Assembly (NCBI GenBank): GCA_958009085.1 | Contig: OY253672.1 | Location: 1-64,000 of the forward strand | DNA: 64,000 nt | Reading direction: 5' to 3' | Source of the DNA: Protoeuglena noctilucae | Lineage: Eukaryota | Shown here: positions 6,164-59,600 of the stretch, one piece after another | Numbering within the stretch: position 1 is the first letter of the stretch | Layout: each line of letters opens with the position of its first letter | The notes under the pieces: model-generated | Told to the model about the DNA's origin: nothing | The model's database searches: none | What the model saw: the letters and a program-made list of their open reading frames with translations, nothing else | Position numbers and translations under genes: made by a program

Positions 6164-9100
6164 TCACGTCGTCTGCGCCTGCCCCCCCGGGGCGTCCCTG
6201 CGCCTCGCCCTCCCCCCCAGCAGCTCCGCCAGTCTCTGCGGCAGCGTCGACAGCGACACGGCCTCCTCCACCCGCCTGGCGCTCTCCACCGACCGCAGCG
6301 TCACGCGCTCCCCCGCGTGGAAGGCCTCGTGGTCCAGCAGCACCATCCAGCGAAGGCCGCGCTGCTGCGCGAAGCTGTACTGCTCTTGGGCGCTGGGGCT
6401 GGCGGCGCCGAGCATCTCCGCACGGATGCCCGCCTCCCACAGCGTGCGGCAGATCTGCATCCTGCATGACACACAGGGACAGGACCAATGCTCAGCTCAC
6501 GCGAAGTCGGCAAGGCCACCCACCGCTGCCATTGCCTGCCCTTGGCGTCACGCCCTGCACCTCTCGCGTAGGAGCCCTCCCCCCCCCTTGGCGCACACCA
6601 TGACGCCGAGGCCGGCGCTGTGCAGCCAGGGGCGCCCGTCCGCCCCCTTCCGCTCCTCCCTCGCCCTCACGTACCCCACCAGCTTGTCGATGTGCACGGT
6701 GGCACCCACGGCGCCGGGGGCCGCGGGCACGCCGGGGCGGGTCGGCCTGAGATGGGGAGGAGCGGGGCGGTGTTGGGTTAGCACAGGACATGGCTGCTTG
6801 ATTCACATCGCATGCCTCACCTGAGCAGGGGTGGGAGCTGGTCGCATGGCAGCTCCTCTTGCACGATACCACAAGCCCATTGCCTGCCTCCGCCTGTGTC
6901 CTTGACCAGCAAATGGCATCGCATTCCTCACCAGTACTCTTTCACGAGCAGGTCGAACCTCCCCCCCACGGCGACCGTGTCCGAGGTGCCCCCCGGCGCC
7001 TGGCCGTGGGAGTGGGCGTGGTGGGGGGTGGCGCGGGGCTTGAGGCGGACCTGGAAGATGGAGCCGGACGCGCAGTCCATGTGCTTGGGGATGACTGCGA
7101 GGAGAGCGAGTGACAGGGTGACTCGCACATTGCATGCAGGCGTCGAGCGTGGCACGGCCGCTCTGGCAAGGCGCGCACCGGGGTCCAGGCAGACGTGGGA
7201 GGGGGCCATCCCCCACGCGACGAGGAACCTGGCCAGCGCCTGGCACTCTTCCAGCGCCAGTGCCGCTCTCTCGTCCCCCTTCAGCGCCGCCAGCAGTCGC
7301 GGGCAGGCGTCATCTGCCGGCCCGCACAGCTGCGACACGGCCGTGAGTCCCTTCTCCACGGCGCTGCTCTCCAGGCCCAGACCCTCGAGGCCCTTCCTGA
7401 GAAGAGGGGGACAAGGGAGTGGCAGGGTGAGGGCCAAGGTTGGGGAAAGCGAATGAAAGAGTGGCGGGTGAGGCTTCTGTTGAAGTCAAGCAACGTGGGG
7501 GTGGCAGGGTCAGCTCACACCACCCCGCTTGCCCATGCACCGCCCTGCCCACTCGCCGTATCTCCAGCCACGGCCCCGCGCGCCCCGACTTCCCCCCCGG
7601 CAGCAGGATGGGCTTGCTCTTGGCCGCCGACGCCAGCAGCGCCGCCGCGCTCTCCCGGTGCTGCGCGGGCACCCCCAGGAAGAGGTCCATGAGAAGAGAC
7701 AGCAGCGCCGAGTGGGACACGCGCACCTCCACCTCGCAGTCCTCCAGGAGACCCATCCGGCGCAGAGACTCCACCTGGGGAGAGGGAGAAGCAGGGCGAT
7801 AGAGTGGAGCTGGCTGGATCACATGGTACAGACTGCAAGCAGCGTTGTGTTCATGTCTCACGCACCACGGCGTGCACCAGCTCCGCGGTGACCACGGCGC
7901 CGTCTGCCCGGGAGCACCCGCCCCGGTGGAGGAAGTCGATGTCGGCGACGGTGAACTCACGGGGGAGCTGGCCCGCGCGCTCCTTGGACTGGCGACGCAC
8001 CGTGGCGATCTGCAGTGAGCGATGGCAAGCGACGGTCAGTTATACTAACCATATCCAACCCCACTTTGCCCACTCTACCACTGCCCCACCCCGCTAGTAA
8101 CACACGCACCTCGTATCGCCTGAGGTTGACGACGGCGTCTGCCCTTGACCCGTCTGCCGCCAGCTCTGCCACCTGCGCCCCCAGCCACCGCGCGAAGGGG
8201 CGGCGCATCTCGTACCTCACACCCAGGGCGTGGCCGGCGGAGGAGAGCAGAGACGCGGCGTCGGATGGCAGCGACCCCTGGGGCAGGAACCCCAGCGCCG
8301 TGGATGTCATGGGAGCCGCGCCGTGGTGGGACAGCGTCTCACGCAGCGCCTCCACCACCTGGGGTAGGAGAGGGGAGGGGGAGGGAGGGTGTCATGACAG
8401 GGTCTCAAGCGAAGAGACTCCATTGCCTAAGGACACACTGGTCATGGTCACGAGAGGGGAGGGTGTGGGCGGAGGAGCGATGCACCGGCCAGTGGGCGCG
8501 GGGCAGTGGCACCGTCGGCCGTCGCTGTGGCAGGGTGCTAGAGGCCGCCCGGGGTGGGGAGCCGCGGGCGGCTCGATGATCCCTGCGTCTGTGTTGGGCA
8601 TGCGTGCGCATGTGCGCGTGTGCATGTGCGCAGTGCACGCAGACACCCCTCGCCTGCTCCCTCAGGTGCACGGCCACGTCCGCGCGTGGCGTGCCCGGCA
8701 GGTCCTGGAGTGCCGAGAGATGGGCGCGGAGACCGGCGGCGTCGGCGGCGGGGAGGGGATCCGCGGCAGTGCCCCCGGGCGGCAGGGGTGACGCGGTGGC
8801 TGCGGCTGCCCTCTCCCTGCCGATCTCAAACACGCGCTCCATGACCATGTCCAGGTGCTTGGGGTTCTTGTCCAATGCACTGCATGGGGGAGGCGTGTGG
8901 GTGTGTGGTGACACGACACCACGGTCGGCATCCATGCCCATGCATCGCCACCCATGTCCCTCACCGCAGCATGACCCTCATCTCATGCATCGCCACCCCT
9001 GCCACGCATCTCACCGCAGCATGACCCTCAGCTCCTCGTCCTCCACGGTGCGCGGCAGCAGGTCCGACTTGAGCAACTCACGGGCGGAGGGGCGCTGGGA

Positions 9101-14053: not shown

Positions 14054-17000
14054 ATGAAGCCGCAGAGTGTCGTAGGAATGTTTGGCAGCTCACAATTCGC
14101 GTATCAATCGCGCTGTCCACGTTGCGCCCTCCCGCCATGCCGGTCTTGCTCGCTTGCCCCGGATGCGTCGTGCCCCTTGCGCCCGTGGCGTCCCCTGGGG
14201 CCGGCGACGACCTCCTACGTCCCTTTCGCTGTGAAAGAACGGGCACTGCCTGTTCGCGTCGCGGCAGGGGGGCGGGGCACGCGGGACGCGCGGGGCGGCG
14301 GCGACGAGGGGCGGAAGAGCGCGCGACAGCCAGGGCGGGCGAAGGGGGCGTTTAGGAGAGACCCTCCGCCACCCGCGGGGGAGAGACACGGGGCGTCATC
14401 GACAGGGACGAAGGGCAGGCAGACCCGACCTCGCCGACCCCGCCGGGACAGCAAGAGTCCAGGTGAGGCCGACCCACCAGGCACGTATGCGTGTCCCATG
14501 CAGCAGCGGGGTGCCTGACCTCATTCGCCCGCTCTCCCCCTGCGCAGAGCTGCCCGCGGACTGGGCCGAGATCACGGCAGTCGTGGACGTGGTGCGGCGC
14601 CACCGTGCCCAGCTGCAGGGGGACGCGGCGTCGGGGCCCCTGCCCAGGCACGACAGGGGAAGCGGTGGGGGAGCTGATGAAGACGAGGGGGATGGGGCAA
14701 CAAAGCAGGGGACAGCGCTGCCCTGTGCACCCGCACTGAGGCTGCTGGTGAGGGAGGGGCATGTGCATGCAGGGGTGCGGCATGGTGTTGCAGGCAAGCA
14801 CTCTCTGAACCACCCATTGCGTGGCTGCAGGCGACGACGCGGCCGCAGCGGCTGAACCTGGCCATCCGCGAGCTGGGCAGGCGCGGCGCCTGCGAGGATG
14901 CTCTTCGCCTGGCCTGGTGGGTGCGGTGTCGGCGCCCCTGGGATGCGTCCGACCACACGGTGGCGGCGGCAGTAGGGGCGGCGGCGTCGTGCTGGGGGGG
15001 CAGGCGGGCGAGGGAGGAGTTTCAGCGGATGAGGGCGTGGGGCACACGTGCGTGGCAGGAAGGGGCATGCAGGGTTGCGTGGCAGGTGCATGCGACCGTG
15101 CCTTGCGACGCCCCATCTCTGCCCCCGCAGCCCTGGGCCCCGCCTCTGCCACTGCCCTGGTGGATGCGCTGGCCAAGGACGCGGAGGTGGCATTGGAAGA
15201 GACCCTGGACACACTGGCGCGGCTGCAGGGGGAGGGCGTGACACTCAACATCCGGACCTACAATGCGGGTGGGACTGGGGGTGGGGCTAGGGGTGGGGAT
15301 GCGATGCGCTGGGGCAGCTGGCACGCAAACCCAACAGCCGCTCCCCCTGCACCCCGCAGCTCTGCATGCCTGCGCACTGCACGCCAACGCCTCAGAGGCA
15401 CTGGCACTCTACACGCTCGTCAAGACGCAGGCGAGGCAGCGATGGGGGGGTGCTTTGCACTTAGAGTGACTCTGCACTTGCCAGGCGTGCATTAGACAAT
15501 GCATAACGCAGTGCGTGTCCGGCTTTCCTGTGTGCCTTGTGACCCTCGCTTCCCACCCCACCCGCAGTTCCCGTCGCCAAGCCTCCTCCCCACCACGTAC
15601 ACCTACGCCGCGTTGCTGAGGGCCGTGGACGCGGGTGGCATGCCCGGCGCGGCCAAGTCTCTCTTCCCCGACATCCACGCAGCCACACTCGCGGGGGAAC
15701 TGGTGAGGGGGGTGGGGCAGTGGGGGTGTAAGAGGGGCAGGGCAGCGGTGGTGAGGGGAGGGGTGGAGCGGTGCGGGTGAGGGTGGAGAGCAACACAGGG
15801 TGGCACGCACCGCCCTTGCCCTGTCCACTGCCACCGCCCCTTGTCGCCGCAGCCCCCCGACGTGATGCTCTACCAGCACTGCCTGCACTTGGCTGCGGAG
15901 AGCCGGGACGTGGCTCTGGGGGAGGAAGTACTGAGAGGTGAGGGTGAGGGTGCGTGAGTGTGGGAGTGGGGGTGTGGAGTGAGCATGGCGCGAGTGATGT
16001 CCACAGTGCATCGCAGGCATCAGCAAGGCCGGCGTGTCCATGAATGCCCACGTCTACAACGCGGCCGTGTCTCTGTACGCAAGCGTGGGGGACCTGGAAA
16101 CGGCGCTGGGGTGGATGGACCGCATGGCCGCGGGTGAGGGAGGGGAGGGGGGTGCTGGTCATCTATGCTCTCTGTCAGCGCAGATGGACCTCTGCTGAAT
16201 GACAGCACAGGGTTTGACATGTCGTGACTTATGACTGTTGCCCGCAGCGGGGGGCGCCACCCGCCCCGACGACGTCACGGCCACCCTCGTCCTCACCGCG
16301 GCAGCGAGGGCGCAGGTGAGGGGAGGGACTGGGGCGAGATGGTTGGGCTGATATACCACCGCCTGTTCCCCTGTCTGTTGACCATGATGACCCTCGCCTG
16401 CTCCCACGCAGGCTCCCCTTTCGACGGTCGAGGCACTGCAGGGTGAGGACGTGGTGTGGGTGCATGCATGGACACCAGACCCACTTGCATGTGTGCATCC
16501 AATGCGTCGCACTCGCATTCACCTCCACTCGCTGCCTGCACTTGTTAACCCCCACACCCCCCCTGCACCCACCCTTACCAGCTGCCTGCACTCAGTGGTC
16601 CCCGTTACCCCCCCGCAGCCCGCCTCTTCAGCGACCTGAGCATCCCCCGCACCACCACCAACGACGGCGCCACGCTGGGCGCCCTGCGTAGCTGCGGGGA
16701 CAGACCCGCCCCCACCCGCGCGTCGCTGTGCGAGGCGTGGCTGCGTGGCATGGCTGCAGCAGGGCGAGCGGTGGAGGCGCACCACGGTCACACGGCGGTG
16801 GCGGCGATGCTGGAGGCAGAGGACTGGCGAGGAGGCGAGCGAAGGAGATGGGGAGGGGGAGGGGGTTGAGACACAGCAGCTGCAGTGGGGCAGCATGAGC
16901 GATGGTTAGCATAGCTCTCTCTCCCGCAGCTGTGCGTGTGTACGACTTTCTGGTGGAGGAGCGCGGCGTGGAGCCCACCCCCGTGCTGCTGGGGCAGGTG

Positions 17001-17099
17001 GCGGTGGCATGGGAGCGGATGGGGGAGGTGGGGCGCGCGGCGGAGTGGCGGGACCTGCAGAGGGCCTACCGCGACATCTACGGGGAGGAGCGGCGATGA
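14054..17099 (+). CDS. Pentatricopeptide-repeat (PPR) protein, probably organelle-targeted, multi-exon
   Basis: PPR-like motifs in successive exons: GEGVTLNIRTYNA, PTTYTYAALLRA, PDVMLYQHCL, GVSMNAHVYNAAVSLYASVGDLETALGW, PDDVTATLVL, AVRVYDFLVEERGVEP. R/A/P-rich N-terminus resembles a transit peptide. Start codon uncertain. Confidence 0.75.
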
Positions 17100-17189
17100 G
17101 AGAGCCCGCGACTGGGCAGTGTCGGACACCTCTCTTCAACAGCAGCGCTCGCCATGCCATGCCATGCCATGCCATGTGCATTTGTGGCG

Positions 17190-20160
17190 TCACGATGGCA
17201 GGGGCGCGGCTGCCACGTCCGCGGCGGCCCTCTGCACCTGGGCGTGGAGTGCCCCGAGCTGCTCCTCGACGTGCTCTTTGAAGGAAACAAGGATGCTGCG
17301 GAAGGGGGGGGGCGGGTGTGGGTCAGGGGTCAGGACAGGGAGGTGGCATGACAGGCAAATCGCTGAGATGGGCCGCCATCCTCGCTGCCCTCGCCTGAAC
17401 GCCTGCGAGAGTCTCGCGGCGAGTGCCGCCTGCTCCCTGTCGCACCGTCGCCGCACCTCGTCCCTCTCCGCCTGGGCTGCCGTGACGCGGGCGTGGCTCT
17501 CGGCCAGGGCCTCTGCGACGATGGGGGGGGAGAGGGGGATGGGGGAGAGAGGGGCAAGCAGGGATGGGGGAGAGATGAAGAAGCAGGGGTGGGAGGGAGA
17601 GGAGGGAATGTGAGAGAGGCTGAAGCGCATGAGAGAGTGTGACAGGCCCAGTGTCCCCTCAAGTCAGCCCCCTCCACCCCCGGCGCCTCCCTCCCCCGCC
17701 CGCCCCTCACCCGTGCCCCTCCCCCGCAGCACCTCCACCTCCTCCTTCAGCTGCTCCACCTGCCCCATGGCGAACCGCATCTGCGTTAATGGGACCACAT
17801 GTGTCAGCGTGACACATGTGGTCGGTGCGCAACACAGTCACCGCCATGCACCATCACAGTCCCTGTTGCCATTCACCTCCGCCTCCAGCTCGTCCCTCAT
17901 CAGCTGGTGCCTCTCCTCCATCCGCTGCACCTCCCTCTCCGCCACGCGGTTCTCCTCCCGCAGCTCCCCCGCCGCCTCCTCCAGCGACGCGTGGCGCTCC
18001 TGCAGGCGAAGCAGCTCCTCGCCCAGGCCGCGCGCCTTGGAGGCGTACTGCTCGCGGAGACGCTGGGCTGCGGGGGGGGAGTGGGGGCGCATGCGGGTGT
18101 GACGGACGACACACGCAGGGTGCATGGGTCAGTTGGGTGCCCTGCGTCATCACGCACCTGCGGGCTTGACGACCCCGCGGATGTCGAGGGGGAGCGTCTC
18201 CGAGGGCGGGTCGGCGTCCCTGTGCACGCGGGCCTCCAGGTCGGCACCCTTGGCGCGCTTGGCAGTGCTGGGCGCCATCTGCGCAGAGAGGGGGGGGGGG
18301 GGGGGGTACGCAGTTGGAACAAATGAAGGCGTGATTGGTGAGTGCCCGCGATCGCACCTCGCGTCCCCACCTGCAGTCGGTGCAGCGCGGCGTTGTAGGC
18401 CGCGGTCGATGCCTCGAGGGCGTCCGCTGCCGCGTGGCTGGCGGCCCCGGCCTCGTCCGCGCGGCGCTCGGCGTCCGCCCGCTGCTGCACGGCCGCGTCG
18501 ATGGCGGCGGCCAGGCGGCCCCTCTCCCGGACCATGCGGCCCTGCTCCTCCTTCGACACCACCTGCGGTCGAACAAGACAAGGGGGGGCGTGGTTGTCAA
18601 CCACACGCCACCTGCCACCTAGCCACCGCCAGTCACCCCCCCGCCCCTCGCCTGCGTGGCGACCCTCTTCTCCAGCGCCGCGTTCTCCTCCCTCAGCTCC
18701 CCCAGCCGCCGCCCCTGCTCCTCCGCGTCCCCCGCCCGCGCCTCGGCACGCGACGCCTCCCGCGACACCGCGGCGGAGAGGGACGCGATGAGCTCCTCGA
18801 ACTTGCCCACGTCCGAGGAGAAGTCGGCGCGGCGGCGGCGGGCCTGCTCCAGGCGCGTGGGCTCCGACCGCAGACGCGCCACGCGCTCCCTGCAGAGACA
18901 ACGAGGGCAGTGGTAGCGTGACACGGGTGCTGTCACGTCATCCAGTGCCGCCTCACTGCCAATGGTGTCCACTGCGCCCGCCGTCCGCACCCCGCCCCCA
19001 CCTGAGCTGCGCGTTCTCTTCCCTCAGCCGCGCCCCCTGCGCCTCCCGGTCGGCCGTGCGGTCCGCGAACCGCCTCCCCAGCTCCTGGTCCAGGCTCTCG
19101 CACAGGCGGTCGTCCCCCGACAGGAAGTGGCGGTACGACTTGGTCACGTACTCGAAGAACACCTGAGACGAAGGAGAGGGGCGGGCATGGATCACACACA
19201 CGCAGGCACCTGCGTGTCCCATATCGCTGCCGTAGCCACCCTGCCAGCCTCGCCTCGTTCATGTTATCCCCGTCGTCCGACCCCTTCCGCTCCTCCTTGA
19301 GTGCCTCGACCCCCTGCTCGTACACCAGCAGCTCGCACAGCCACACCAGGGCCGCCAGCACCACCGGCCACGTGTGGGGGGCGCCCACGGCGAAGAGCGA
19401 CGACTTGGAGATCTGGAAGGGGTAGCAGAGGCGCTTGTACAGCTGCGGGGACGAAGAGAGAGGGGCTGTCTGAGACAGGCGGCCGGAGGGAGGCGGTGGA
19501 GGTGGAGGCCCCTCTGGTCACCCCCCCAAGCCTTGCCTGCACGACCTCCTCGTCGAACTTGCCGTCCAGGGCGAGGTTGGGGTCGACGCGCTTGAAGAGG
19601 AAGAGCACGATGGCGTTGAAGTCCTTGATGGAGGGCAGCTGCAGCGCCTTGGGGGTGAGGGCGCGGTCGTAGCCCTGGGAGGAAAGGAAGGCGATGAGGG
19701 CGCGGATGCACTGCTGCATGTAGCCCTTGTCGCCCACCGGACGCGGGTCCGCCTTCTGACCCTTGCCACCGGGACCGTACATGGAGCTCTGGCGCCGGGC
19801 GGCGTTGTCTGCGCGGCGCGGGCGAGGGTGGGGTGGGTCGGGAAGGCGTTTGAACGCCGCGGTGCGACCCGCGGCCCGGGCTCGACGCGGCTTCCGTCAG
19901 CAAGTCGAATGGTTTATGCGCGTGCATGGGGGGACCGCGGGGGCGCCCGGACTCCCTCCTCGGCGCGAGCGATGCATTTGCACGCCCATTGCCCGCTCAC
20001 TGGCCACCGCGCCCTTCTCCGCGCGGGCGGGACCGCCGAGCATGGTCATCCGCTTGCTGTCCGCGCCCTTGTCTGCCACACGCCCCGCTCCAGCCATGGA
20101 GGCGCGCGAGTTGAGCTGCCCGGGGCTCAAAGCCCCGAGCGTCTGCCGCCTGCTCGCCAT
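17190..20160 (-). CDS. NDC80: Kinetochore protein NDC80/HEC1, multi-exon
   Basis: DPRPVGDKGYMQQCIRALIAFLSSQGY...PSIKDFNAIVLFLFKRVDPN...EEVVQ|LYKRLCYPFQISKSSLFAVGAPHTWPVVLAALVWLCEL (HEC/Ndc80 CH domain), followed by long coiled-coil exons. Confidence 0.92.
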
Positions 20161-20619
20161 GACCCCAATCACTGTCGAGGTCCCCAAGCCCAGGACGGGC
20201 CCAATCACGACGGTCTACAGTTAGTCACGCGATTCTCCAACGGCCCTGGTCTCGGAGCGGCCCCTCATCGGAAGAGACACCCGTTGTTAGCCGGGGTGCC
20301 TCCGAACCAGGCCTCGAGAGGAGCGCGAAACGGGCAGCGTTGAATGTTACGCACTGATTGACGATTCTCATCGGAAGGCGGTGATGCGCCGAGGCGCAGA
20401 CGACATCTGGCGCTCGAAAAACGCAAGAACTCCTGGCCGTGCAACTCCCAAAGGAAGGCCGCGTCCGTCCATTGCTGTGACTACGATAGCTCTGTGTGCT
20501 TTTCGCGTTGGACGACGCATGAATTTGTTTCACCCAGCCCCCACATCTCTGCGCCTTTGTGAGCCCGCCGCGCCGGTCTCTGGGTCTCGTGTTCTGTTGC
20601 ATGGACGCGTTTGAAGGAG

Positions 20620-21655
20620 ATGGGGTCCAAGATTCAATCGAATGAGCGCTTCTGGACGAAGCGGGTGAGAAGTGGGGGACGTGGACATGCCGCCCATCCC
20701 TGGAGCTCCCGGGCGTTGCTTGAGAGGGCAGCGCGCCAAAGCTACCTCTAAGTGGCTGTCCGCAATCTGTTGGCATTGCCGCCTCGTGCGCAGATACGAA
20801 AGGAAGAGGAGTTTTATGTCCGGACGCTGCGCGCGCAGCCCCAGGTGAGCCCGCTGGCAGCGAGGCAGGGGCCACAGAGTCGTTCGTTACGTGAGCTGCA
20901 CGCTGGACCGGCCCAGCGCCATGGGGCAGGCTGGACTTGCGATGGAAGGCATGCACAGCTGGCTGCAGGGCGTGGTGGTGGGGACTGGGACGCTGGGCAT
21001 CCCCACGGCGCGGATGAACTTCGCGTACGATGACCCGGGCGTCCAAGACCACATCAGCAACATCCGGGAGATGCGCACCGCGGGCCTCATCCCCGGCCCG
21101 GCTGACGACGTCAAGCCGGACGACAGCGTGTCCGTGCGCAGGCGAGTGGCAGCCACGTCGCTCGCCATCCCGTCTCACAGTGCGGGATGGGTGGAGTCGC
21201 ACGCTCTACGCCCCCTCGGCGATGCGATGCATGCGCCACTCGCCCCCCTCCCCAGCGTGGCGACGGGCGTGCGGTCGCTCGATGTGGGATCCGTGGCGGA
21301 GTCGGCGGCGATGAGGAAGCTGGCGGAGCTGGAGGAGCAGCTCAAGTCCGAGGTGGGCCACCTCAGAGCAAGCATCATGCCATATGGGGTGCAAGGCTGC
21401 TGGTGGAGGGTGGGGTGTCATGTGTTGGTGTCCTTCCGCCCCCAGAGGGAGCGCGCCATGAACCTGCAGTCGGAGCTCGATCGCATGAAAGTGGCGTCCA
21501 CGTCAGGGGGTTCACAAGCACCGGGGGCAGAGTTGCGGGGGGCCAGGGGGGACGGGGCCCCCTCCAGGGTGGGGCAGCCAAGGGCGTCGGGGGCAGCCTC
21601 CACCGCGGCGTCCAGGCCAGGAGCGAGTCGGCCGGGGCAGACAGGTGAGATGTGA
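20620..21655 (+). CDS. Hypothetical protein with a short C-terminal coiled coil, multi-exon
   Basis: Exons MGSKIQSNERFWTKR|IRKEEEFYVRTLRAQPQ|...MNFAYDDPGVQDHISNIREMR...MRKLAELEEQLKSE|RERAMNLQSELDRMK with GT-AG junctions and coding-like codon usage. Confidence 0.55.
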
Positions 21656-21989
21656 GCCACGCGTCACCCCTGGTTGCAAAGCGTGTGCCGTGTGCGCCCC
21701 GACACAGACGCGCTGGTCCCCTGTCCCCCCGGGAAGCAGGTGCCGCGGGCAGCGAGCGAGGGTTCCGAGAACGGAGCAGGGGCGGGTCGAGAGGGCCGGG
21801 ACCCTGAGGCAGCGATGCATTGCATGGGCAGCGCGCCCTAGGTCATCATGCGCGCCGGCTGGCCTGGTTGACGCAGTCACCCGTTCAAGCAAGCCCCAAG
21901 ACGCCACAAAAAGGCGCCCAGGCGCTCGTGGGTGGGCGCAGCAGGGCGGCAGCGCAGCACGTCTGCGGGCGCAGCAGTGCGCCTGCGGC

Positions 21990-22937
<948 letters not shown>

Positions 22938-25398: not shown

Positions 25399-28300
25399 TC
25401 ACATTCCCTGCGGCCGAGCCACGGGGCGATATTTTCCCCAACGCGCCTCCACCCCTGCCCCTCGCTGTGGCCTCTCTCCCCATCCCTCACCTGACTCCGA
25501 GCTCCTCGCCTCTGACACGCTCCCAATGCCACTGCCACTGTCACCCCCACTCTCACTCTCACTGTCGTCCTCCACCCCCAGCGTGCGCCGCGTGCCCCCC
25601 AGGGATCCCGCCACAATGGGCGCGTCCCCACCAATGCTGCCCTGCCTACCGATGCTGCCATCCCCACCGCTGCCACCCCGCGACCGCCCCCCACTTCCCG
25701 CATGCCCCGACCCCTGCCCCCCCGCATCCCCCGTCCCCGGACTCGGCAGCTCGATCTCCTGAGGGGTGGCGGAGCCACTCTGGCCCGAGGCATCCAGGGC
25801 CCGGGGGGAGGCCCCCGCCTCACCCGCGGGAGGGTGGGGGTCCCGATCTGCAATGCGCCCCTCTGCCCTTAGCACCGCCCTCGGCCCCCTCTCTCCCCGC
25901 CCCCCATTCCCACTCCCCACATTCCTGCCCCACAGCTCCTCCGACACATCCAGGGACTCGGGGAGGCTGCTGGGGGAGGACGCCACCCTTTCCCTGGAAG
26001 GACACGAGAGAAGAGGGAGGCACATGGAGGCACGTCTCAGTGCGTGGGGTGGAAAGACAGCTGCGGCAGAGCGACTGTGGCAGGGCGACTGCGGCAGAGC
26101 TGCGGCCCACACCCCCACCTGTTGCGGAGGGGGCCGGCCCCAGGCCAGGGCCCCACGGCCACGTACCCCGGCGGCTCAGCCCAGCGGAGCGGATTGTGCT
26201 CTGGGACCTGTCGCTGTGGCCCGGAGTGACTCAGGGTCCATGCGGGTGGCGGCGGGGCAAGTGCGCGTGTTTGGGGAGCGGGGGCGAAGGGGGCCGCCCT
26301 GGGTGGGTGGGCGTCGGCCCAGGAAGCAGCAGCTGGGAAGGGGTCCCGGGGCATGTAGGGGTCGCGCGTGGCCCCCACGTGGCGCTCGCTGCAGGTGGGT
26401 GAGCACATGGCCGGTCGCATAGGCACAGGGCATCAACAGGCGTCTTTATGCGCACACCCCGCCACTCACCTGGCAGACGTGTCGCGGCTGCCCCGCCCAT
26501 CCACCGACCGCGCCATGTCCCTCAGCTGCGTCTTGAGCATGGCACGCAGGGACGTCTGCAGGCACAGCGCGTGTGGGTGTGAGGGCGGAGAGGGTCAGCA
26601 AGGTGTGGGTGTAGCTTAAGGGGCACTCGCCTTCTCGAGTGCTCCGTCCGCGCGGCCCTTGCGGCTCTGCCTGGCCCTGCCCTGCCCGTGTCGCGTGGCG
26701 TGGCCAGGGGCGACGTGGGGCGGTGCCAGCAGGGCCAGGGGCATCGTGGTGCCCGCCACGCTGCCCACCGCCAGGAGACCCGCCCGGGCGCGTGCCAGCT
26801 CCCGGCGCTCCTCCCTGCGCTTGGAAAGTAGCAGCCAAGTCATCCCAAGCCTCACCCTTCCCAGCCATCCCACGCCCCATCCCATCTCCCCCCTCACCGG
26901 ACCCGCGCCCGGTCCGCCTCCGCGTCCGCCCGCGCCAGGGCCACCTGCGCTCGCTCCTCCTGAAGCAAAGTCGACTCAGTCGCGAACCGCGCCTGGGACG
27001 GGCGAGGGAGACGGGGTGCTTTGAGCATCGGCATGGCCGCACCCCACGCTTGCTCCTAGCATGGCCCCTGACCCACTACTACCCCGCCCCACTCCGCCCC
27101 ACCTGCGCCTCCCCCGCCTCCCTCTCCCTCGCCGCCACCGCAGACTCCGCCTCCTCCACCGCCGCCCTCCGCTGCCCCACGTCCCGGGCCACCGCGCGGA
27201 TCTCCTCGGCCAGCGCCGTCACCTGCTGGCGCTGGGCCTCCACCTCGTCCCTGGGGACACACCGAGGGGGGTCGCATGAGTGAATAAGCCACTGCTGCAG
27301 GGCGGGGACTCGCAGTGCTTTGCTGGCAATGCCCCACCTGGCGCGCTCGACGGCCACCGCCTGCTCGGCCACGGCCCTGCGCTCCGCCTCGATGCCCGCC
27401 CGCGCGCTGCCCAGTCGCTCCTCCCACTCGGCCGCCTCCTGCCGCAGCCGCGCCACCCGGGGCTCCAGGGCAGCGGCCTCGGCGCGGAGGGCAGACGCGC
27501 GCTGGCGGACGTCCTCCAGGGCAGCCAGGGCGACGAGGCGCTCCTTGGTGGGAGAGGGAGACGTGGGGTTGTTGCACAAGGCCAGGTTCACGCGTGACAA
27601 CAACCATGCCTGTCACCTCTCCCCCTCACTTCTGCCACCCTGCGCCTCTCCGCGTCCACCTCGTCCGCCGCCCGCCTCCGCTCCTCCTCCGCCCTCGCCC
27701 GCGCCCTTTCCGCCGCCGCGAGGCTCTCTGCCGCCAGTGACCGGGCCGACGCCTTCTCTGCCTCCGTCTCACGCGTCTGAGAGACAGCGGGGGGGCACGC
27801 AGCGTCACGAGACAGCGCACAGGGGGATGCTGCGAGTGGAGTCATCCGCGCATCCAAGCACGGCACGTGGCTTTCAAGACATCACCGCTTGCATCTCTGC
27901 ACACACGCACGCCCCCCCTCACCAGTGCCTCCAGCCGCACGCGCTCCGCCTCGGCTGCCAGCTGCGCCGCGTGCTGCCCCGCCTGCAGGTCCGCCCCCTG
28001 CCGACGCAGCTGCTCGGCCAGCTCCCTGCAGAGAGGGACGCCGCGCTGTGCTCACTGCTGCACAACCTGGCCACCAACAGGCAGGGCAGGCCGGTCCCTG
28101 CCGGGATGCAAGCGCCCCACCTCAGCTGCGCCTGCATGCGCGCATGCTCCGCCTCCCGCCCCTCCAGGTGCCTCTCCCTCTCCCGCAGCTGCGCCTCTCC
28201 CTGGGCCAGACGCGCCTCGCGGTCCGCCACCGCACGCGCCACCTCCCGGGCGAGGCCCTCCTCCGCCGACCGCATCAACTCCGACATGCTGCGGGGAAGG

Positions 28301-31284: not shown

Positions 31285-33118
31285 ATGAAGGTGAAGGTCA
31301 TAAATCGTTCGGAGGAGCAGTGCACGCGGACGAGGTCTCAAGACGTCGTCAAGGTGAGCCGTACGAAGGCTGCGTGACGATGCACCGCGTGACCGCGCCC
31401 GCCGAGCGCGCAGCGTCGCTGAAAAGTGCGGCGGCCGCTCTCTTCGCAGGTGCACCGCAACCTCGACCCCGCGCTGCATCAGTTCGAGCGCGCACACGAG
31501 TACCAACGAGCAGTAAATGCAGCCAAGTTGGACCGCGTCTTCTCGCGCCCGTTCGTCGCGGCCCTGACGCACGAGGACGGCGTGTGCTGCCTGGCGAAGA
31601 ACAAGAGGAGGGTCAACTCGCTGCTCGCGGGGTCGGCGGATGGGGAGATCAAAGTCTGGGATGTGGCGCTGGTGCGTGCGCGGCGCCCAGCGTCCCGGCG
31701 CACTTGGGCCGTCCCAGCCCCCTCGCTGCCCATCAGGCCACCCCTCACCCTTGCCCCCTTCTCCGTGACCCGCAGCGGCGATGTCTGCGGCGATTGGTGG
31801 GGCACCGCGCGGCCGTCAACGGCGTGGCGGTGACGCACGACGGCGAGGGGGCCGTGTCGTGCAGCTCCGACTGCACCGTGCGGCTGTGGAAGGTGCCGTA
31901 CGCTCCCTTTGAGGGAGGGGTGGTCGAGGCGGACGAGGACCCGGTGGCGGAGTTCCGGGGGAAGGTGAGAGGCCGGCGGAGGGGCATGCGGGGTCGCGCA
32001 CGGCACTGCCAGAGCGTCATGGTCACGCGAGGGGTGCCGTGGCCGTGGTTGCAGGGCGCCTTCACTAAGGTGGACCACCATTGGCGCGACGCGAGGTTCG
32101 TGACGGCGGGGCGCGTCGTCGAGGTCTGGGACCACGCCCGGGCGCAGCCGCTGCAGGCGTTTGAGTGGGGCAGCGACACGGTCACGTCGGTGCGCTTCAA
32201 CCCGGCAGAGGCAGAGGCGAGGGCGGGGCGGCGGCGGCGGGGCTTCCATGGTGATCCTTTAGTGACAAATACCTCTCAACTCGCATGTCGCCTCCCCCGC
32301 AGCTGGTGGCCAGCACGGGCTCCGACCGCTCCCTGGCGCTGTACGACCTGCGGATGGGCGCCCCCCTGCGGAAGCTGGTGATGCAGACGCGCTCCAACGC
32401 CCTGGCGTGGAACCCCATGGAGCCCTTTAACTTCACCGTCGCCAACGAGGACACGTGCCTCTACACGTACGACATGCGGCGGCTGGGGTCGGCCCTGTGC
32501 GTGCACCGGGACTTCGTGTCGGCCGTCCTGGACGTGGACTTCTCCCCCACGGGGAGGGAGTTCGTGGCCGGCGCGTACGACCGCTCCCTCCGCATCTTCG
32601 CCTACAACGGCGGGCACAGCCGCGAGGTCTACCACACCAAGCGCATGCAGCGGGTGTTTGCCGTGCAGGCGAGAGCGCGGGGGGCGGGGGAGGTGGAGGG
32701 CAGGGTAGGGGACCGTGCTGGCGCCCGCGCCTGCTCCCTGCCCACCGCGCCTGCGCCGTCGCCCCTTGCCCCGCAGTTCAGCGTGGATGGCTCGTACGTG
32801 TTCAGCGGCAGCGACGACATGAACGTGCGCGTGTGGAAGGCGGAGGCCTCCGAGCAGCAGGGGACGCTGCTCCCTCGCGAGCGCCACAAGCACGCCTACC
32901 ACAAGGCCCTGGTGCAGCGCTACGGCCACCTGCCGGAGGTGCACCGCATCGCGCGCAAGCGCCACGTGCCCAAGGACATCCACAAGGCGGCGCAGCTGCG
33001 GCGCGCGATGGAGGAGTCGGAGCGGAGGCGGCTGCGCAACCGCATCCAGCACTCGGCCCCAGGGGCGGTGGAGGTGAAGCCGGCGCGGAAGAAGAAGGTC
33101 GTGGCGGAGGTGGAGTGA
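31285..33118 (+). CDS. DCAF13: DCAF13/SOF1 WD40 U3 snoRNP-associated protein, multi-exon
   Basis: MKVKVINRSEEQCTRTRSQDVVK|VHRNLDPALHQFERAHEYQRAVNAAKLDRVFSRPF...WNPMEPFNFTVANED...HSREVYHTKRMQRVF...SGSDDMNVRVWKA...HLPEVHRIARKRHVPK. Confidence 0.96.
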
Positions 33119-33283
33119 GGGGGCGGAGGCGGTGTCGCTTAATGCCGGTTGGGCCGCCCTCTGCGGCACTGCATTTGGTCAATGTCCGTGCGCACGCGGA
33201 TGCAGCCGGGCCAAGCGGCGGCGGCGCTCGTTCAAAGCAGCTGGCATAGCATAGCGCAGGCGCAAGCCGCTCGCGACCCCTCC

Positions 33284-35313
33284 CTACCCGATGGGCAGTG
33301 CCAGGAGGTGGTGCTGGAAGAAGTGGTTGATTTCGGCCTCAGGGTTGGCGTGGCCCAGCGCCCCCAGCACGTCCTCGACCACGGCCGCGTGGAAGTGGCC
33401 CGTGTCGACGTACTCGTCGACCTGCAGCAACAGATAGGGTGCAGATGGGGAGAGCGCAAGCGCAGGTGCAGGTGCAGGTGCAGGAGGTGCAGGTGCAGGT
33501 GCAGGCATGCCTGCACTCGCAGCCTCACCATGGCGGTGAGGAGGAAGTCGGCGGGGGTGCGGAGGGGCCCCGCGGTGCCGGGTTGCCCGACGACCTGCTG
33601 CTGCAGGATGGGCGACAGGTGCGCCGGCTGCGTGGTCGACGCGCCGTTCTGTACAAGGATGCGGACGGTGTGCGCGGGGTTGGGGATGTCGGCGAACCTC
33701 TGGCACACGAGGTGCAAGGGCGCGAGGCCCTGCGTGCTGCGCGCGTTGGGGTCGGCGCGCGCCTGCAGCAGTGCCTCCACTACGGGTGGAGGTGGGCAGG
33801 GACTGGGGAGGGCCTCTCACGCTGGCCAGGCGGGGAGTGGCGCTTGCCGGGTCCCTCACCCACGCTCATGTTGCCAGCGACGCATGCCTCGTGCAGCGCC
33901 GTGAGCCCGCTCCGCAGATGCCGCGCGTTGACGTTTCCGCCCCGCTCGACCAGCCGTGGGATGGCGTCCGCCTGCCCCAGCTCCGCAGCCACGTGGAACC
34001 ACGCCGCACCATTGGCGGCGTGCATGCGGGACAGCTCGGGCAGCTGCACGGGCGGGGGCTCACTTGATTGCGCACACATGCGCCCTGCATGCCAGTGGCC
34101 GCGTGCACCCATCACCCACGCAGTCGCAAGCGGCCCGCACCAGGTCGAGGGCGGGGAGTGCTTGCTCGCGAAACACACGTGCCATTTGTTCCGAAGCCAC
34201 GTTTGGGTTTGGGTTCGCCAGCACCTCCAAGCGCACCCCCAGCTGCATGGCGACCTGCACCGTGTCTGCGTGGGCCATTATGAGGGCCGCGCCCTGGCCC
34301 ATGTCCCGCGTCTGGCTTTCGAGGAGGAAGGCCACTGCACGGGTCCGCGCCTGGCCGACCTCGATGGCCGTGGCCCCTTCCCCGGTCGCATCCGCCGCCT
34401 CCGACGCCACACGGTGCCTGGTGTTGGTGCGGAGCATGGGGTCCCTGGCGAGGTGTTTGGGGAGCCCCGCCTGCCAGCACCGCACAAAGAACTCCCGCAG
34501 GCAGAGGAGCTTGTGCACGTTCCCCGCCCGCACGGCCTTGTGGAACGGCGTGTCCCCGGCACGGTCGGCGCTGGAGAGGGCGTAGGCGACGATGCGGAGG
34601 TAGGAGGGGTTTCCCTGGATGAGGGGCTCCAGAATGGCTGAGAGAGAATGGGAGACGATGGGGTGAATGGCGCGTTCCGTGCTAACCCTGTCATGGAAGG
34701 GGCACGGCTGGGTCAGGTCAGGTCTGTCACCTCTGATGGCGAGCAGGGGCCCCCGGAGCACCGCGTGGTGGAGGAGGGGCATGCCGTCTACGGGGCACTC
34801 CAGGGCCCGCCTGAGGAGGTCCGGGTCGCATTTGGCCAGGCTCTCGACGCGGTCCGACAGAGCCTGGTACTCCTGGCTCAGGATGCGTCCCAGCAGCTGC
34901 TCCGCCTCCCGCCTCGCCGTCCGCTGCCTCTGCGGAGGCAAGTGTAAGGCGGTCGCATAGCGAGGCATCGGCGATAGCGTCGCTCAGCCAAGAGTGGGAT
35001 GCATGCGGCCACAACTCGCCTTTATCACGCGGGCGATGGCGAAGAGCAGGAAGAGGACTGCGCTCAGGGCGCCGAGGATCCGCAGATGCAGAGTGCCTGC
35101 GACGCTTGAGGAGCTTGCTTTTCGCTTCTGGGATGGGCGCCGCTCCCGAGGCCCCACAGTGTGCGCGGGGGCCCGGGCACGCTCGGGGGGAGCTGGGGGA
35201 GCGTCCGTGGGGGTGGGGACCGCGGGCCGCAGGCGGGCGTCGACGATGCGATGGATACCGTCGATGAAAGACAGTCCCCCGTCGACGAGGCGCGCGGTAT
35301 GCTCCTCCGCCAT
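33284..35313 (-). CDS. Ankyrin-repeat protein with an N-terminal transmembrane helix (paralog A)
   Basis: Hydrophobic ILGALSAVLFLLFAIARVI. Ankyrin motifs GMPLLHHAV, GDTPFHKAVRAGN, WFHVAAELGQADAIPRLVERGGNVNA, GLTALHEACVAGN, GLAPLHLVC. Confidence 0.82.
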
Positions 35314-43800: not shown

Positions 43801-45149
43801 ATGGATTTTGAGAAAGACCACGTCGCGCCCGCCGTGCTCCGAGGACCCCCGCCCCATGGCTTCCGCATGGGCCCCAGGCGAGTGTGTCGCCCTCTGCCGA
43901 TCCCAATGCCCTGGCCTGTCTCTATTGACCAACGCCGTCTCAGACCCAGACCCCAGCCCCGTCCCAGCTACGACTACAAGTGCCACATCACGTTGGAGCG
44001 GGTGCATGAGGGCGAGACCATCCGCATCGAGGTGGCTGCGAACAGGTGACGCATCGATGCAGTCGACGATGTGAGGCGGGGCGTGCCGGCTCGCAGAGAT
44101 CACGGACACATCCTGGCAGTTCAGGGAACCATGCACGCGGGCCCGGGGGAGGCTCAGTCGCGTACGTGGGATGTACTGCGACAGGCGATGTCCCCTGGCG
44201 CTCGCAGCCCCGACGTCGAGGAGTGGGGTCGCAAGGCTGCCCTGAAGGACTGGGTGCCGCGGGAGCCGCGCGTGCGGCGTCTCAAGTGCACGTACCCCTT
44301 TGCAGTCACCGTGGAGAGGGGCGGGTGGGCCGTGCGCCTTCGCTGTCGGATGGACCCAGTCGCGCTGACGTTCCAGGTAGGCTCGGCCAGGGTCGTGAGC
44401 GAGGGGGAGGGCGTGAGCCCGCAGGGCGGGCCCGGGCTGCTGGGGGAGGGGTGTCGGCCCCCTCGCAGCAGCCATGAAGCCCTCGACGTCAGCGGAGGCG
44501 CTTGCCGACCAGACGGGACATCGGGTGCTGCCCCGGTACCGCAGCGGGAGAGGGGCGCGGACACCGAGGGCGCGCCAGCCATGGTCGCGTCCTCTCCCAA
44601 CCGCCTGGCGGTGTCGGGGCTGCAGGCGAGGGAGCGGGGGCACGCGGCGGCTGGAGCCTGTGTGGGCCGTGGATGGGGGGCACGTGTGACACAACCTCCA
44701 CCCCAGCGTCGCGCGCAGGCTCGGCGGCGGCGTCCGCGGCCGTCGCAGGAGACGAGGGCGGCGCTTGGGGAGTGGCTCGCGGCGCGGGGCCTGGACTGCG
44801 ACGTCCTCGGGTACCTGGTGTCCGCCGTCTTCGACCGAGAGCAGGTCGAGTTCCAGAGGCGAGTGACGCGGCCCTGTAGTGCATGCGGCGCGGGTGGCCA
44901 GCGCGCAGCCGCAGGCGCGAGGCCGTCCCGGCATGGGAGCCGCCCGCTCGTCTTGTGCCGAGCTGGCAGACGGGCGCCCTCCTTGCTGGCTGCCGCAGGT
45001 ACCTCCTGCGCATGCAGGGCTTCGTCCTCTTCCACCCAGTGTGGGCAAAGCCGGCGCCCCTGCCGCTGCCGGGGGGCCTCCGCAGCGCCCTGAAGCTGCT
45101 GCGGGGTGGCAGCCCCGCACACAGCCCCAAGCTTCCCGCGAACAAATGA
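43801..45149 (+). CDS. MAM33/p32 mitochondrial glycoprotein-family-like protein, divergent
   Basis: HITLERVHEGETIRIEV, and ETRAALGEWLAARGLDCDVLGYLVSAVFDREQVEFQR|YLLRMQGFV, which resembles the MAM33 C-terminal helix pattern (L..YL..RGID...KEQ.EY..WL.....FV). Confidence 0.6.
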
Positions 45150-46484: not shown

Positions 46485-47296
46485 TCACTTGGGGGGCGCG
46501 GGGGCCCCCGGGGGAGCGGGGGGGGGCGGGGGCTTGTCAACCTCCCAGTAGCTGATCTCGAGGGGCTTGTCCGAGATCTCCCACGGCTTCATCTCCCTCA
46601 TCTGCGCACGAGCTGGCAAGTCACCGTGGCTTGCTGCCAGAGCCCACCTCACGTGCGCAGGTTGAACCACGCAGGCAGCATGCACCTTGGGAATCAAGGC
46701 GAGGTGATTGCGTGCCGTCACGAGCACCTCCTCGAGCTGTCCCCGGCCGATCTGCGGCCACGGAACGCAGCAGCGACACGTGAAGGGGCCCGCCGCAGAC
46801 GCCCACGCCTGGCCCAATCCGAACACTGAAGGCCCCCGGCGCTCGCTCGCCTTGGCCTCGACGTCCGCGTCGTCCACGATCGACGGGTCCTCGCACACTT
46901 GCTTGATGTAGCCGAACAGGCGCTCGGTCTGCTGTCGGAAGCCCGCGTCGGCGGGGAGGTCCTGCACGCCCTTCAGAATGCTCCCGCACATGGCCACCAG
47001 GTTCGCCCGAGCCTGGGGATCCACCTCAACGCCGACGATCGCCGTCCTCGCCTTTGTGGAGAGCCCCGCCTGCAGCGGACGGAGCCCTTCACCATTTGCA
47101 GGCCTCCTGCCCCGAACCATCCCCGCCCACGCTGCCAGCGGGTGGAGAAGCGCACAAGGAACGCGCCATCCACCATCGGTGGGCATTAAGGCGACGAACA
47201 CGCGCTTGGGCGCGGGGCATCCTCGCGGACGCACTGCCTCACCCCCCCGGCTTGCCGAATGGGCGTCGCCAGCGCCCAGGCCACCCTCCTCAACAT
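46485..47296 (-). CDS. NDUFA5: NADH:ubiquinone oxidoreductase subunit NDUFA5 (B13)
   Basis: Presequence-like MLRRVAWALATPIRQ, then TAIVGVEVDPQARANL...LPADAGFRQQTE...VEAK|IGRGQLEEVLVTARNHLALIPK|MREMKPWE. Confidence 0.9.
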
Positions 47297-56600: not shown

Positions 56601-59600
56601 GCAGATGTGCGGGGTGCCGGTGGCCGACGCCCGCGCCCTCACGCGCCTGTGGGTGCACGAGTGCCTGCGGGTCTTCCACGACCGCCTCATCAGCGACGAC
56701 GACCGCCTCTGGTTCTGTCAGCTGGTGCGCGACAGCGTCGACAACGTCCTCGGGCAGAAGTTCAACGCGGTGTTTGCGCGGCCGGACGGGGGCGCGCCGG
56801 AGCTGGCGGACCTGCGCCGGCTCATGTTCTGCGACTTCCAGGTCATGAACGCGGACCCGCAGCGCTACGACGAGGTGCACGACCTGGGCGCGCTGCTCAA
56901 GGTGGTGGAGGAGTACCTGGCGAGTTACAACGCCGAGCACAAGAGCGGCATGAACCTGGTGCTGTTCCAGTACGCGGCCGAGCACATCTGCCGCATCTCC
57001 CGCGTCATCAAGCAGCCGTACGGCAACTGCATGCTGGTGGGCGTGGGCGGGTCCGGCCGCCAGTCCCTGACGCGCATTGCGGCGTACATGGCCGAGTACG
57101 GACTGGAGTCGATCGAGATCTCCAAGTCGTACGGGCTGGGGGAGTGGCGGGAGGACCTGAAGCGCATCCTGGAGCAGGCGGGGGGGCAGGGCAAGCCCAC
57201 CGTGCTCATGCTGGCCGACACGCAGATCAAGTACGAGTCGTTTTTGGAGGACATCAACAACATCCTCAACACGGGCGAGGTGCCCAATTTATTCGCCAAG
57301 GACGAGCTGGCGATGATCACCGAGAAGGTCACCAAGCGCGCGCGGGCGGCCGGGCGCGGGCTGAGCATGGAGGAGCTGTACGCGTTCTTCGTGGAGCAGT
57401 GCCGCCAGAACCTGCACATGGTGCTGGCCATGTCGCCGGTGGGGGACGCCTTCCGCGTGAGGCTGAGGAAGTTCCCCTCCCTCGTCAACTGCTGCACCAT
57501 CAACTGGTTCCAGGCAAGTGGCAGGGGGGCAGGCGTGTGCGGGGGTATGGTGTGTAAGGGTGTGGTCATGACCTGAGCTAGGCGTGCTGGTTCCTTGTAC
57601 CACCCGAGCACCTCTGCTACCAAACTGAGCTGAACAATGAAACTGAGCCCTCATTACCCCCCCTGCTCATCCTCCCCCCAGGAGTGGCCGCGTGATGCCC
57701 TCAAGGCCGTGGCGCGTCAGTTCATGCGTGACGTGGACTTCGACACGGAGGCGGTGCGGGAGAGCGTGGAGGACATGTGCATGAGCATCCACGTCAGCGT
57801 GCGGCAGCTGGCGGACCGCTTCCAGGCCGAGCTGGGCCGGCACTACTACACCACGCCCACCTCGTACCTGGAGCTCATCAGCACCTACAAGCTCCTGCTG
57901 GCCCAGAAGCGCCTCAAGGTCTCCAAGCTGCAGACGCGGTACGAGATCGGCCTCGACAAGGTCATCCAGGCGGAGAGGGACGTGGGGGTCATGCAGCAGG
58001 AGCTGATCGACTTGGAGCCCAAGCTCAAGGCCACGACGCTGGAGGTGGAGCAGACGCTGAAGATCGTCAACACCGAGTCGCAGCAGGCGGAGAAGACGCG
58101 GCAGGCGGTCAAGGCGGACGAGGCAGTGGCCAGGTGACTGGGAGGGGTGACGTGGGATGGGGAGGGCCAGGGTCGATGATTGGGGGGCAAGCATGGGCTG
58201 CGATGCGCCGCTGCCACAGTGATGGCGCATCGAGGCACCACTAACACACTGCTACTGCTATCACTACTGCGCTACCACTGCCCCTCTGCACATTGCTGCC
58301 ACCGCCCCACTGCGCGTCGACCGGCCCTTCACCACCCCCACCCCCCACCCCCACCCCCGCAGTGAGAAGGCGGCCGCGAGCAAGGTGATCAAGGACGACT
58401 GCGAGGCGGAGCTGGCCAAGGCCATGCCCGCGCTCAACGCGGCCCTGCGCGAGGTGGAGAAGCTCACCCGCCAGGACATCCAGCAGGTCAAGGCGATGAA
58501 AAACCCGCCTCTGCCCGTCAAGATCGTGATGGAGACGGTCTGCCACCTGTTCAACCTCAAGCCCGTCAAGGTCAACGACCCCGACAACCCCGGGAAGAAG
58601 CGCGACGACTTCTGGCCCGTGTCGCTGCAGCTGGTGTCGCAGCTTGACTTCGTGAAGCAGCTGCAGGTGTTTGACCGCAACGCCATCGACGAGGTCATGA
58701 TCAAGCGCATCGAGCCGTACTTAGAGAGGGAAGAGTTCCAGCCCGAGGCGGTGAAGAAGTCCTCCACGGCCGCGTTTGGCATCTCCCAGTGGGTGCGCGC
58801 CATGCACACATACTACTACGTGAACCGGGACGTGGCGCCCAAGCGGGCGGCGCTGGAGCAGGCCGAGTCGGAGCTCAAGGAGGTGACGGACGCCCTCGCG
58901 GTGAAGAAGGCGGAGCTGCAGGCGGTCGAGGACAAGATCGCCGAGCTCAACGCGCTGCTCCAGCGCAACGTGGACGAGAAGGAGAGATTGGAAAAAGAGA
59001 TGGAGATGTGCTCGAAGAAGATCCAGCGGGCGGACAAGCTCATCTCGGGGCTGGGGGGGGAGAAGGCGCGGTGGGGGGAGGTGTGCGCCAAGCTGCGGCT
59101 GGACTTCGGCAACCTGACGGGCGACATCATGCTGTCCGCGGGGACGATCGCGTACCTGGGGGCGTTCACGAGCGAGTACCGGGCGAGCGCGTCCCGGGAG
59201 TGGGCGTCGCTGTGCAAGGCGGCCGGCATCCCCTGCAGCGAGCGCTTCTCGCTCGAGGCGGTGCTGGGGGACCCCGTGCGCATCCGGGCGTGGACGATCG
59301 ACGGCCTGCCAAACGACTCGTTCAGCATCGACAACGCCATCATGATGCACAACGCCAAGCGGTGGCCGCTGCTCATCGACCCCCAGGGGCAGGCCAACAA
59401 GTGGGTGCGCAGCATGGTGCGCGCCCGCAACCTCCACGTCATCAAGCTCACCGACCGCAACTTCGTGCGCACATTGGAGAACTGCATCCCGCTGGGCTTC
59501 CCGGTGCTGCTCGAGAACGTGGCCCAGGAGCTGGACCCCACGCTGGAGCCGCTGCTGCTGCGGTCGACGTACCGGGAGGGCAACTCGACGATGATCAAGC

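Follow-up and report, generated by a model that had tools for sequence, protein, structure and literature searches.

Frequent GC-AG introns with strict donor context in a 64-kb window of GC-rich DNA

Why should so many introns in one stretch of DNA begin with GC rather than with GT? This question is raised by the first 64,000 nucleotides (nt) of contig OY253672.1 (assembly GCA_958009085.1, Protoeuglena noctilucae), which as a whole is called the window here. A preliminary description, made from the letters of the window, listed 13 GC donors in unrelated genes with compensation at the neighbouring donor positions, and attributed them either to relaxed recognition by a variant U1 or U6 or to GC-biased conversion of the donors. 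We find that the GC-AG introns are real, frequent and compensated, with GC at roughly every fourth or fifth donor in the window. As to the cause, we consider it likely that these are ordinary U2-type introns with C in place of T at donor position +2, which are tolerated under compensation at the other donor positions and are driven by GC pressure.

At all 13 of the listed positions the first two bases of the intron are indeed GC on the strand given, with AG before them (CG at 7556) and [GA]AG after them, and at none of the 13 has the listed site been displaced by a nearby GT donor. Eight have support that is independent of the donor motif, namely 15431, 32217, 32669, 19536, 19253, 18651, 57514 and 46850.

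The first line of support comes from RNA. Contigs of four runs (X1-X4) were placed on positions 15400-35399, a region of 20 kb that contains eight of the 13 listed sites, giving 41 joints; 15 of the 41 are listed with coordinates, and the results on joints rest on those 15, each of which was re-placed within its stated ambiguity as GT-AG versus GC-AG. Twelve of them are GT-AG (10 on the plus strand and 2 on the minus strand) and three are GC-AG, the same three being found in X1, X2 and X3, and for these a GT-AG placement is impossible. Two of the three, one of them absent from the earlier list, lie in a PPR-like gene that has, according to the RNA joints, seven introns within about 1.5 kb; in what follows a slash marks a splice boundary.

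15431..15567, plus strand: GC-AG intron of 137 nt in the PPR-like gene, cag/GCGAGG...CGCAG/; joints in X1, X2 and X3, only GC..AG fitting the 5-base ambiguity.
16835..16929, plus strand: GC-AG intron of 95 nt in the same PPR-like gene; RNA joints in X1-X3 with sides of 122-215 nt.

The third RNA joint lies in the DCAF13/Sof1 gene, where it is met by a second and different line of support. A protein of 449 amino acids (aa), P0122, with JGI and Logan as its sources and a longest contig of 1635 nt, matches the DCAF13 query exon at 100% identity and maps letter for letter onto six exons of the window, which implies five introns. Since the coding region takes up 1831 nt of the genome, in three frames, while the contig has at most 1635 nt, the source contig of P0122 must have been spliced. 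The five introns are as follows.

31354-31449, plus strand: DCAF13 intron with GT donor, from the mapping of P0122.
31672-31775, plus strand: DCAF13 intron with GT donor, from the mapping of P0122.
31965-32054, plus strand: DCAF13 intron with GT donor, from the mapping of P0122.
32217..32302, plus strand: DCAF13 GC-AG intron of 86 nt; P0122 joins ...NPAEAE/LVASTG... exactly, pieces of RNA contigs start at 32301, and the adjoining exon has 162 nt.
32669..32776, plus strand: DCAF13 GC-AG intron of 108 nt, in frame and stop-free; joints in X1-X3, and P0122 joins ...RVFAVQ/FSVDG...

The third line of support comes from homologous proteins. For a given junction, all GT-AG and GC-AG introns that keep the frame open were enumerated, and the spliced peptide was aligned globally with each homologue under BLOSUM62, the scores being summed. 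With this procedure, every GC junction that was scored, in the NDC80 gene and in the gene of an axonemal dynein heavy chain, beat all of its GT alternatives.

57514..57681, plus strand: GC-AG intron of 168 nt in the axonemal inner-arm-type dynein heavy chain, cag/GCAAGT; 145.2 versus 131.0 for the best GT alternative, over 25 homologues.
19443..19536, minus strand: NDC80 GC-AG intron of 94 nt, cag/GCAAGG; 105.5 versus 95.1 for the best GT alternative, over 60 homologues.
19163..19253, minus strand: NDC80 GC-AG intron of 91 nt; 51.8 versus 40.4 for the best GT alternative, over 57 homologues.
18563..18651, minus strand: NDC80 GC-AG intron of 89 nt; 46.5 versus 36.0 for the best GT alternative, over only 4 homologues.

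Profile matches run in the same direction. The Pfam AAA_8 profile reaches its position 188 at nucleotide 57513 and restarts at 188 at 57679, across the dynein intron, and the Ndc80_HEC profile matches over 24-100 in the exon that ends at 19537 and over 99-143 in the next exon. The same procedure did return GT donors elsewhere: five other dynein junctions are GT (52425, 58134, 60111, 60562 and 61429; 25 homologues were used for dynein, with 10 and 22 at two junctions), and in NDC80, for which the homologues were taken from an exhaustive HMMER search, GT junctions score best at 19001, 18370 and 18157 (13, 5 and 4 homologues). The N-terminal junction of NDC80 was not placeable, the top five candidates lying within 0.5 score, and a search of the NDC80 exon against a word-indexed protein collection matched only the window's own read-through open reading frame (ORF).

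The remaining independently supported donor is in the NDUFA5 gene. When the read-through ORF is aligned with the solved plant complex-I chains, query residues 7-72 correspond to 8-71, 116-139 to 80-103 and 166-202 to 102-137, and these blocks therefore imply a 33-codon insert at 46752-46850, with a GC donor, together with a GT intron at 46602-46685. Here the insert is given by the chain alignment while the exact GC donor was chosen by the consensus, that is, by a position weight matrix (PWM) for which 20 verified GT donors, with a minimum score of 2.1, served as the reference.

46752..46850, minus strand: NDUFA5 GC-AG intron of 99 nt, in frame; a 33-codon insert relative to the plant NDUFA5 chains, with the donor ranking first by PWM among 56 in-frame candidates.

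Five other listed positions are candidates. For 7556, 26630, 35019 and 44859 the evidence is frame logic and the PWM, and for 44626 it is the motif and the PWM score. At 7556 and 35019, as at 46850, the GT alternatives have a donor PWM of 1.3 or less, under the minimum of the verified GT donors.

7397..7556, minus strand: candidate GC-AG intron in a GCN2-like gene, acg/GCGAGT; top of 101 in-frame candidates by PWM, donor PWM 4.0.
26556..26630, minus strand: candidate GC-AG intron of 75 nt in a coiled-coil gene; best of 17 in-frame open candidates, none of which has a GT donor.
34930..35019, minus strand: candidate GC-AG intron of 90 nt in a gene with ankyrin repeats; ranks first among 51 in-frame candidates, the top GT alternative having a donor PWM of -1.6.
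44626..44748, plus strand: candidate GC donor in a putative MAM33-like gene, cag/GCGAGG, donor PWM 6.3; acceptor at 44718 or 44748.
44859..44998, plus strand: candidate and ambiguous GC-AG intron of 140 nt in the same gene; second or third of 113 in-frame candidates.

The gene with the last two candidates presumably resembles MAM33 at its C-terminus, a label that was not confirmed: Pfam gave no family on five exon peptides, and no p32/MAM33 chain was among the solved structures. Pfam likewise gave no family on single exons of the GCN2-like gene.

It is now possible to say how frequent the GC donors are. Altogether 23 GT and 9 GC introns of the window are supported, giving a GC share of 9/32 (28%), and among the listed RNA joints the share is 3/15 (20%). 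Compared with an expectation of 1%, the share of 3/15 has p=4e-4, and compared with one of 2%, the share of 9/32 has p=9e-9. Note also that the motif by itself is no evidence for a donor. The window has 32 copies each of AGGCGAG and AGGTGAG (against 19 of AGGGGAG and 12 of AGGAGAG), and at least 3 of the 44 AGGC[GA]AG sites are not donors, namely 4024 on the minus strand, at the start of a GCD14/TRM61 exon, 47051 on the minus strand, in NDUFA5 coding sequence, and 51891 on the plus strand, in a homology-covered dynein exon. Two other ways of counting were tried and set aside. A local intron finder, combining splice-site scores with the coding potential over 36 nt, was uninformative, since at a threshold of 14 the decoy donors GG (24) and GA (21) came up nearly as often as GT (33) and GC (27). 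A whole-parse gene model was dropped: of 17 verified GT introns it found no more than 9, and it called 15 false introns within dynein exons.

What kind of introns are these? They are removed exactly at GC..AG, as is seen from the three unique RNA joints and from the two junctions fixed by P0122, which is what is expected of U2-type GC-AG introns. A U12-type donor has the motif [AG]TATCCTT. The supported GC donors read GCGAG or GCAAG and none has ATCC, i.e. they are not of the U12 type. The acceptors are alike in GC and GT introns, being C-rich with YGCAG or CCCAG, and the two groups have a mean G+C of 0.68 and 0.67 and a median length of 99 and 134.5 nt (n=7 and 20), respectively. The donors do differ. 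All nine supported GC donors have the context AG/GC[GA]AG, whereas only 7 of the 23 GT donors have AG/GT[GA]AG (Fisher p=0.0008). It is also observed that position +3 is G in 23/23 GT donors (GTG...), never A, and that every one of the 32 supported donors has G at position -1; the donor consensus of the window is strongly GC-shifted, AG/GYGAGG.

The stricter consensus of the GC donors fits a normal U1 that meets one mismatch at +2, and not a machinery that is indifferent to T and C. Thus, of the two causes put forward in the preliminary description, relaxed recognition by a variant U1 or U6 is not supported, for it is at the GC donors that the context is the stricter one; the strict compensation suggests that a normal U1 tolerates these donors, and not that U1 has changed. 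A scan of the whole 64 kb with Rfam gave no match, and no small nuclear RNA (snRNA) gene was found.

Based on these results, we propose that the GC introns would be spliced at the same places as GT donors would be. A standard U1 5' end would pair with donor positions -2 to +5, and a single C-A mismatch at +2 would be affordable only where all of the other positions match. Strong GC-directed mutation or biased gene conversion could then turn GT donors into GC donors where such compensation exists; alternatively, new introns might start with GC where compensation exists. We infer the T-to-C direction, the driving force and a canonical U1 and U6. GC pressure on otherwise perfect donors is the best-supported cause, with the direction of change being presumed. 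The other cause in the preliminary description, GC-biased conversion of the donors, fits the G+C content of 68% in the window and the literature, while the orthologous GT-donor intron that it calls for was not found in relatives, as seen from the following comparison.

The DCAF13 locus, 31285-33115, was compared with 80 related metagenome loci (L001-L080). The positions of the two GC introns are uninterrupted in 73 and 74 of the 80 loci, and six loci carry an intron four codons away from the first of the two positions. The closest genomic relative, L001 (83% identical, G+C 0.73), has only the intron at the 31965 position in common, which is GT here, and lacks both of the GC introns. It is also observed that, of the five intron positions in DCAF13, four are uninterrupted in almost all of the 80 loci; the source organism looks unusually intron-dense compared with its relatives.

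Several points weigh against the explanation by tolerated and GC-driven donors, or against the frequency on which it builds. None of the covering loci has an intron at either DCAF13 GC position (0 of 74 and 0 of 73), so that no orthologous GT donor is seen in relatives. A high G+C content is insufficient elsewhere, as Micromonas RCC299, with 64% G+C, is given 2.7% GC-AG in the part of Iwata and Gotoh's paper available to us (PMC3033335). The 32 supported introns are not a random sample, several of the genes having been chosen since they were flagged, and in the unflagged RPS14 and CFAP20 genes, both highly covered, GC is found in 0 of 6 introns. All of the RNA support comes from contigs of a single study, and 26 of the 41 joints have no listed coordinates. 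The run X4 gave no joints, its contigs being unspliced across 18596-18978 and 26502-27118, the sole contig found across the 26630 region among them, so that two of the listed introns are affected; such contigs may stem from introns that were retained or from DNA in the library and, both being possible, they were used neither way. Finally, the five candidate donors stand on frame logic or motif together with the PWM, and the NDC80 donor at 18651 counts for little because it was scored on four homologues.

The alternative that fares best is that the GC donors were born and not converted. In a recent gain of introns, by intronisation or insertion, AG/GCGAG would be as common a proto-splice site as AG/GTGAG at 68% G+C, and the equal counts of the two motifs in the window agree with this, as do the empty DCAF13 intron positions in nearly all of the 80 loci and the absence of both GC introns from L001. 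GC-AG introns derived from introners have moreover been described in dinoflagellates, where they are prevalent according to the available part of a review (PMC11282704). However, two other DCAF13 introns that are lacking in relatives are GT, so that lineage-specific does not mean GC, and a large part of the 80 loci may represent transcripts or intron-poor organisms, with one gene only being compared; for the first of these reasons, and because many loci are possibly transcripts, the DCAF13 comparison shows neither conversion from GT nor birth with GC. In addition, neither a set of 27 introns nor the window as a whole yielded a sequence family: an all-versus-all blastn of the 27 introns gave a single 21-nt G-rich match, and no family came from the window repeats. 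Since there is no shared sequence family, the introns are not introner copies, at least in this window. We hold birth with GC to be unlikely, though it deserves to be weighed.

A wider form of the same idea is that unsampled marine core chlorophytes have independently arrived at a two-letter donor code, with about one quarter GC, in which the GC donors are traces of a wave of intron gain, recent and specific to the lineage, and not of the decay of old GT donors. We regard this as doubtful. If it were true, the GC-AG share would record how and when GC-rich genomes gained introns.

The next alternative is that an altered spliceosome, through the U1 5' end, U6, a base modification or proteins of the U1 small nuclear ribonucleoprotein (snRNP), reads C at +2 as well as T. 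The GC share here, which is far above the 0.3-2% of plants and animals, could be taken in this sense, as could the fact that G+C alone fails to predict the share in other algae, for which the authors of PMC3033335, in the available text, suggest base modification or U1 snRNP proteins. If C were read like T, however, the fuller consensus at the GC donors would be unexpected, and the same text gives Aureococcus and both Micromonas a canonical U1 5' end, so that we give this alternative very little weight.

The last alternative, that the junctions are misplaced and that the true state is nearby GT donors or retained introns, can draw on the sites placed by frame logic or motif, on an in-frame GT alternative that exists at 7556, on the unspliced X4 contigs and on the three non-donor occurrences of AGGC[GA]AG, but it is refuted for at least five introns, given three RNA joints without a GT-AG placement, two junctions fixed to the residue by P0122 and the preference of homologue scoring for GC, and we judge it most improbable.

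The GC-AG introns also have a practical consequence. Gene finders that admit GT donors only would break roughly one in four or five introns here, and whoever annotates this assembly has to provide for GC donors in the strict AG/GC[GA]AG context. Some of the introns are in frame and stop-free (32669-32776 and 46752-46850), and gene calls of the prokaryotic style read through (32255-33115 and 19267-19896). A read-through protein is present in public collections as P0001 (172 aa), and the length of P0123 (277 aa, 100% identity), which is that of the read-through ORF, suggests that it too may be a read-through product.

Turning to the window itself, its G+C content is 68% overall and lies between 0.655 and 0.711 in all of the sixteen 4-kb bins, so that the high G+C (about 65% or more) of the GC-AG-rich type of alga is found in every bin. 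Positions 1-243 consist of (CCCTAA)n telomere repeats of the TTAGGG type, degenerate beyond about 140 nt, which are followed at 427-1993 by subtelomeric direct repeats of families D5 and D9, spaced at about 740 bp, and from this order the window begins at a chromosome end. Positions 15400-25399 (10 kb) are wholly present in four DNA-like runs of one coded organism ('organism A'), and 27-42% of their sampled words also occur in four marine metatranscriptome runs from a single study.

The gene content was read with Pfam on 150 open frames of the window selected by G+C at third codon positions (GC3). It comprises GCD14/TRM61, a GCN2-like kinase with a HisRS-type anticodon domain, PPR (a weak match), NDC80, ribosomal protein S11/uS11 (RPS14), CFAP20, DCAF13/Sof1, ankyrin repeats, a protein kinase, NEPRO, NDUFA5 and the long axonemal dynein heavy chain. 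The RPS14 gene (22005-22974, minus strand) has by far the deepest coverage by metatranscriptome contigs, and its two introns are GT-AG. Among named relatives, the DCAF13 exon is best matched by green algae, namely Chlamydomonas incerta (85%) and Gonium, Micractinium and Pedinophyceae sp. (80%), and in a maximum-likelihood tree the full DCAF13 protein falls inside the core Chlorophyta on a long unresolved branch, its best full-length identity being 73%. A haptophyte affinity, as for Emiliania, is ruled out by these green-algal matches and by this placement. As judged from its sequences, the source is a marine, flagellate and very GC-rich core chlorophyte that has no close sequenced relative in the collections searched.

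Some further features of the window are noted. A scaffold gap of 200 N is located at 28877-29076 within the long coiled-coil gene region on the minus strand, and close to it, around 28025-28734, are the loose ends of several RNA contigs. Two nested inverted repeats, 39629-39757 with 41096-41224 (129 nt, 93% complementary) and 39857-39942 with 40935-41020 (86 nt, 83%), flank about 1 kb directly downstream of the protein-kinase gene and may be an inverted duplication. Long tracts resembling G/C homopolymers, with up to about 25 C (60695-60720), are found in non-coding or intronic sequence at 11426-11480, 60690-60731 and 50859-50924, together with a tandem repeat that has six copies of an 11-nt unit.

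It remains to compare the window with known systems. In plants and animals, stronger consensus at the other donor positions is typical of GC-AG introns, and donor compensation in such introns was reportedly described by Thanaraj and Clark in 2001. The introns here resemble these, which make up about 1%, in being of the U2 type and in having the stronger consensus at the other positions; unlike them, they are ten to twenty-fold commoner. Micromonas pusilla has introner elements, and here the window differs, its introns being without a repeat family. Nor is the source a Micromonas, as no Micromonas protein was among the best 120 DCAF13 matches.

The nearest known cases are algae. In the available text of Iwata and Gotoh (2011), GC-AG introns amount to 39.6% in Aureococcus anophagefferens, 22.2% in Micromonas pusilla CCMP1545 and 7.7% in Chlorella sp., the U1 5' end AUACUUACCUG of Aureococcus and Micromonas pusilla is canonical, and the origin of the excess in algae is termed 'an enigma' (PMC3033335). 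Like these, the window is from a GC-rich algal genome (theirs having 65.9-69.5% G+C, and two of the three being green) and has ordinary AG acceptors, and its GC-AG share, 3 of the 15 listed among 41 joints or 9 of 32 introns in one 64-kb window and not in a genome, is of the same order. In Emiliania huxleyi, 56-65% of donors are GC, as verified by RNA-seq, expressed sequence tags (EST) and reverse transcription PCR (RT-PCR) and ascribed to 65% G+C, according to the part available of Feldmesser et al. 2014 (PMC4028052); it is likewise a marine alga, with about 65% G+C, that keeps the AG acceptor, but there GC is the majority, in a haptophyte, and here it is the minority, in a chlorophyte. The pelagophytes, with 14-17% GC-AG against 0.3-2% in plants and animals in what is accessible of the preprint (bioRxiv 10.1101/2024.10.30.620910), resemble the window in share, in being marine, in high G+C and in the cause proposed; they are intron-poor, with 0.14-0.9 introns per gene, unlike the intron-dense window. 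As for the direction of change, a net conversion from GT to GC has been inferred in mammals by Churbanov et al. 2008, as far as the accessible portion of that paper goes (PMC2490688).

In the literature searched on GC-AG introns in green algae, haptophytes and other algae, no report was found for a matching lineage. The trait itself is already in print for GC-rich algae, and the window is a further independent case that opens no new question, joining the small set formed by Micromonas pusilla, Aureococcus, Emiliania and the pelagophytes.

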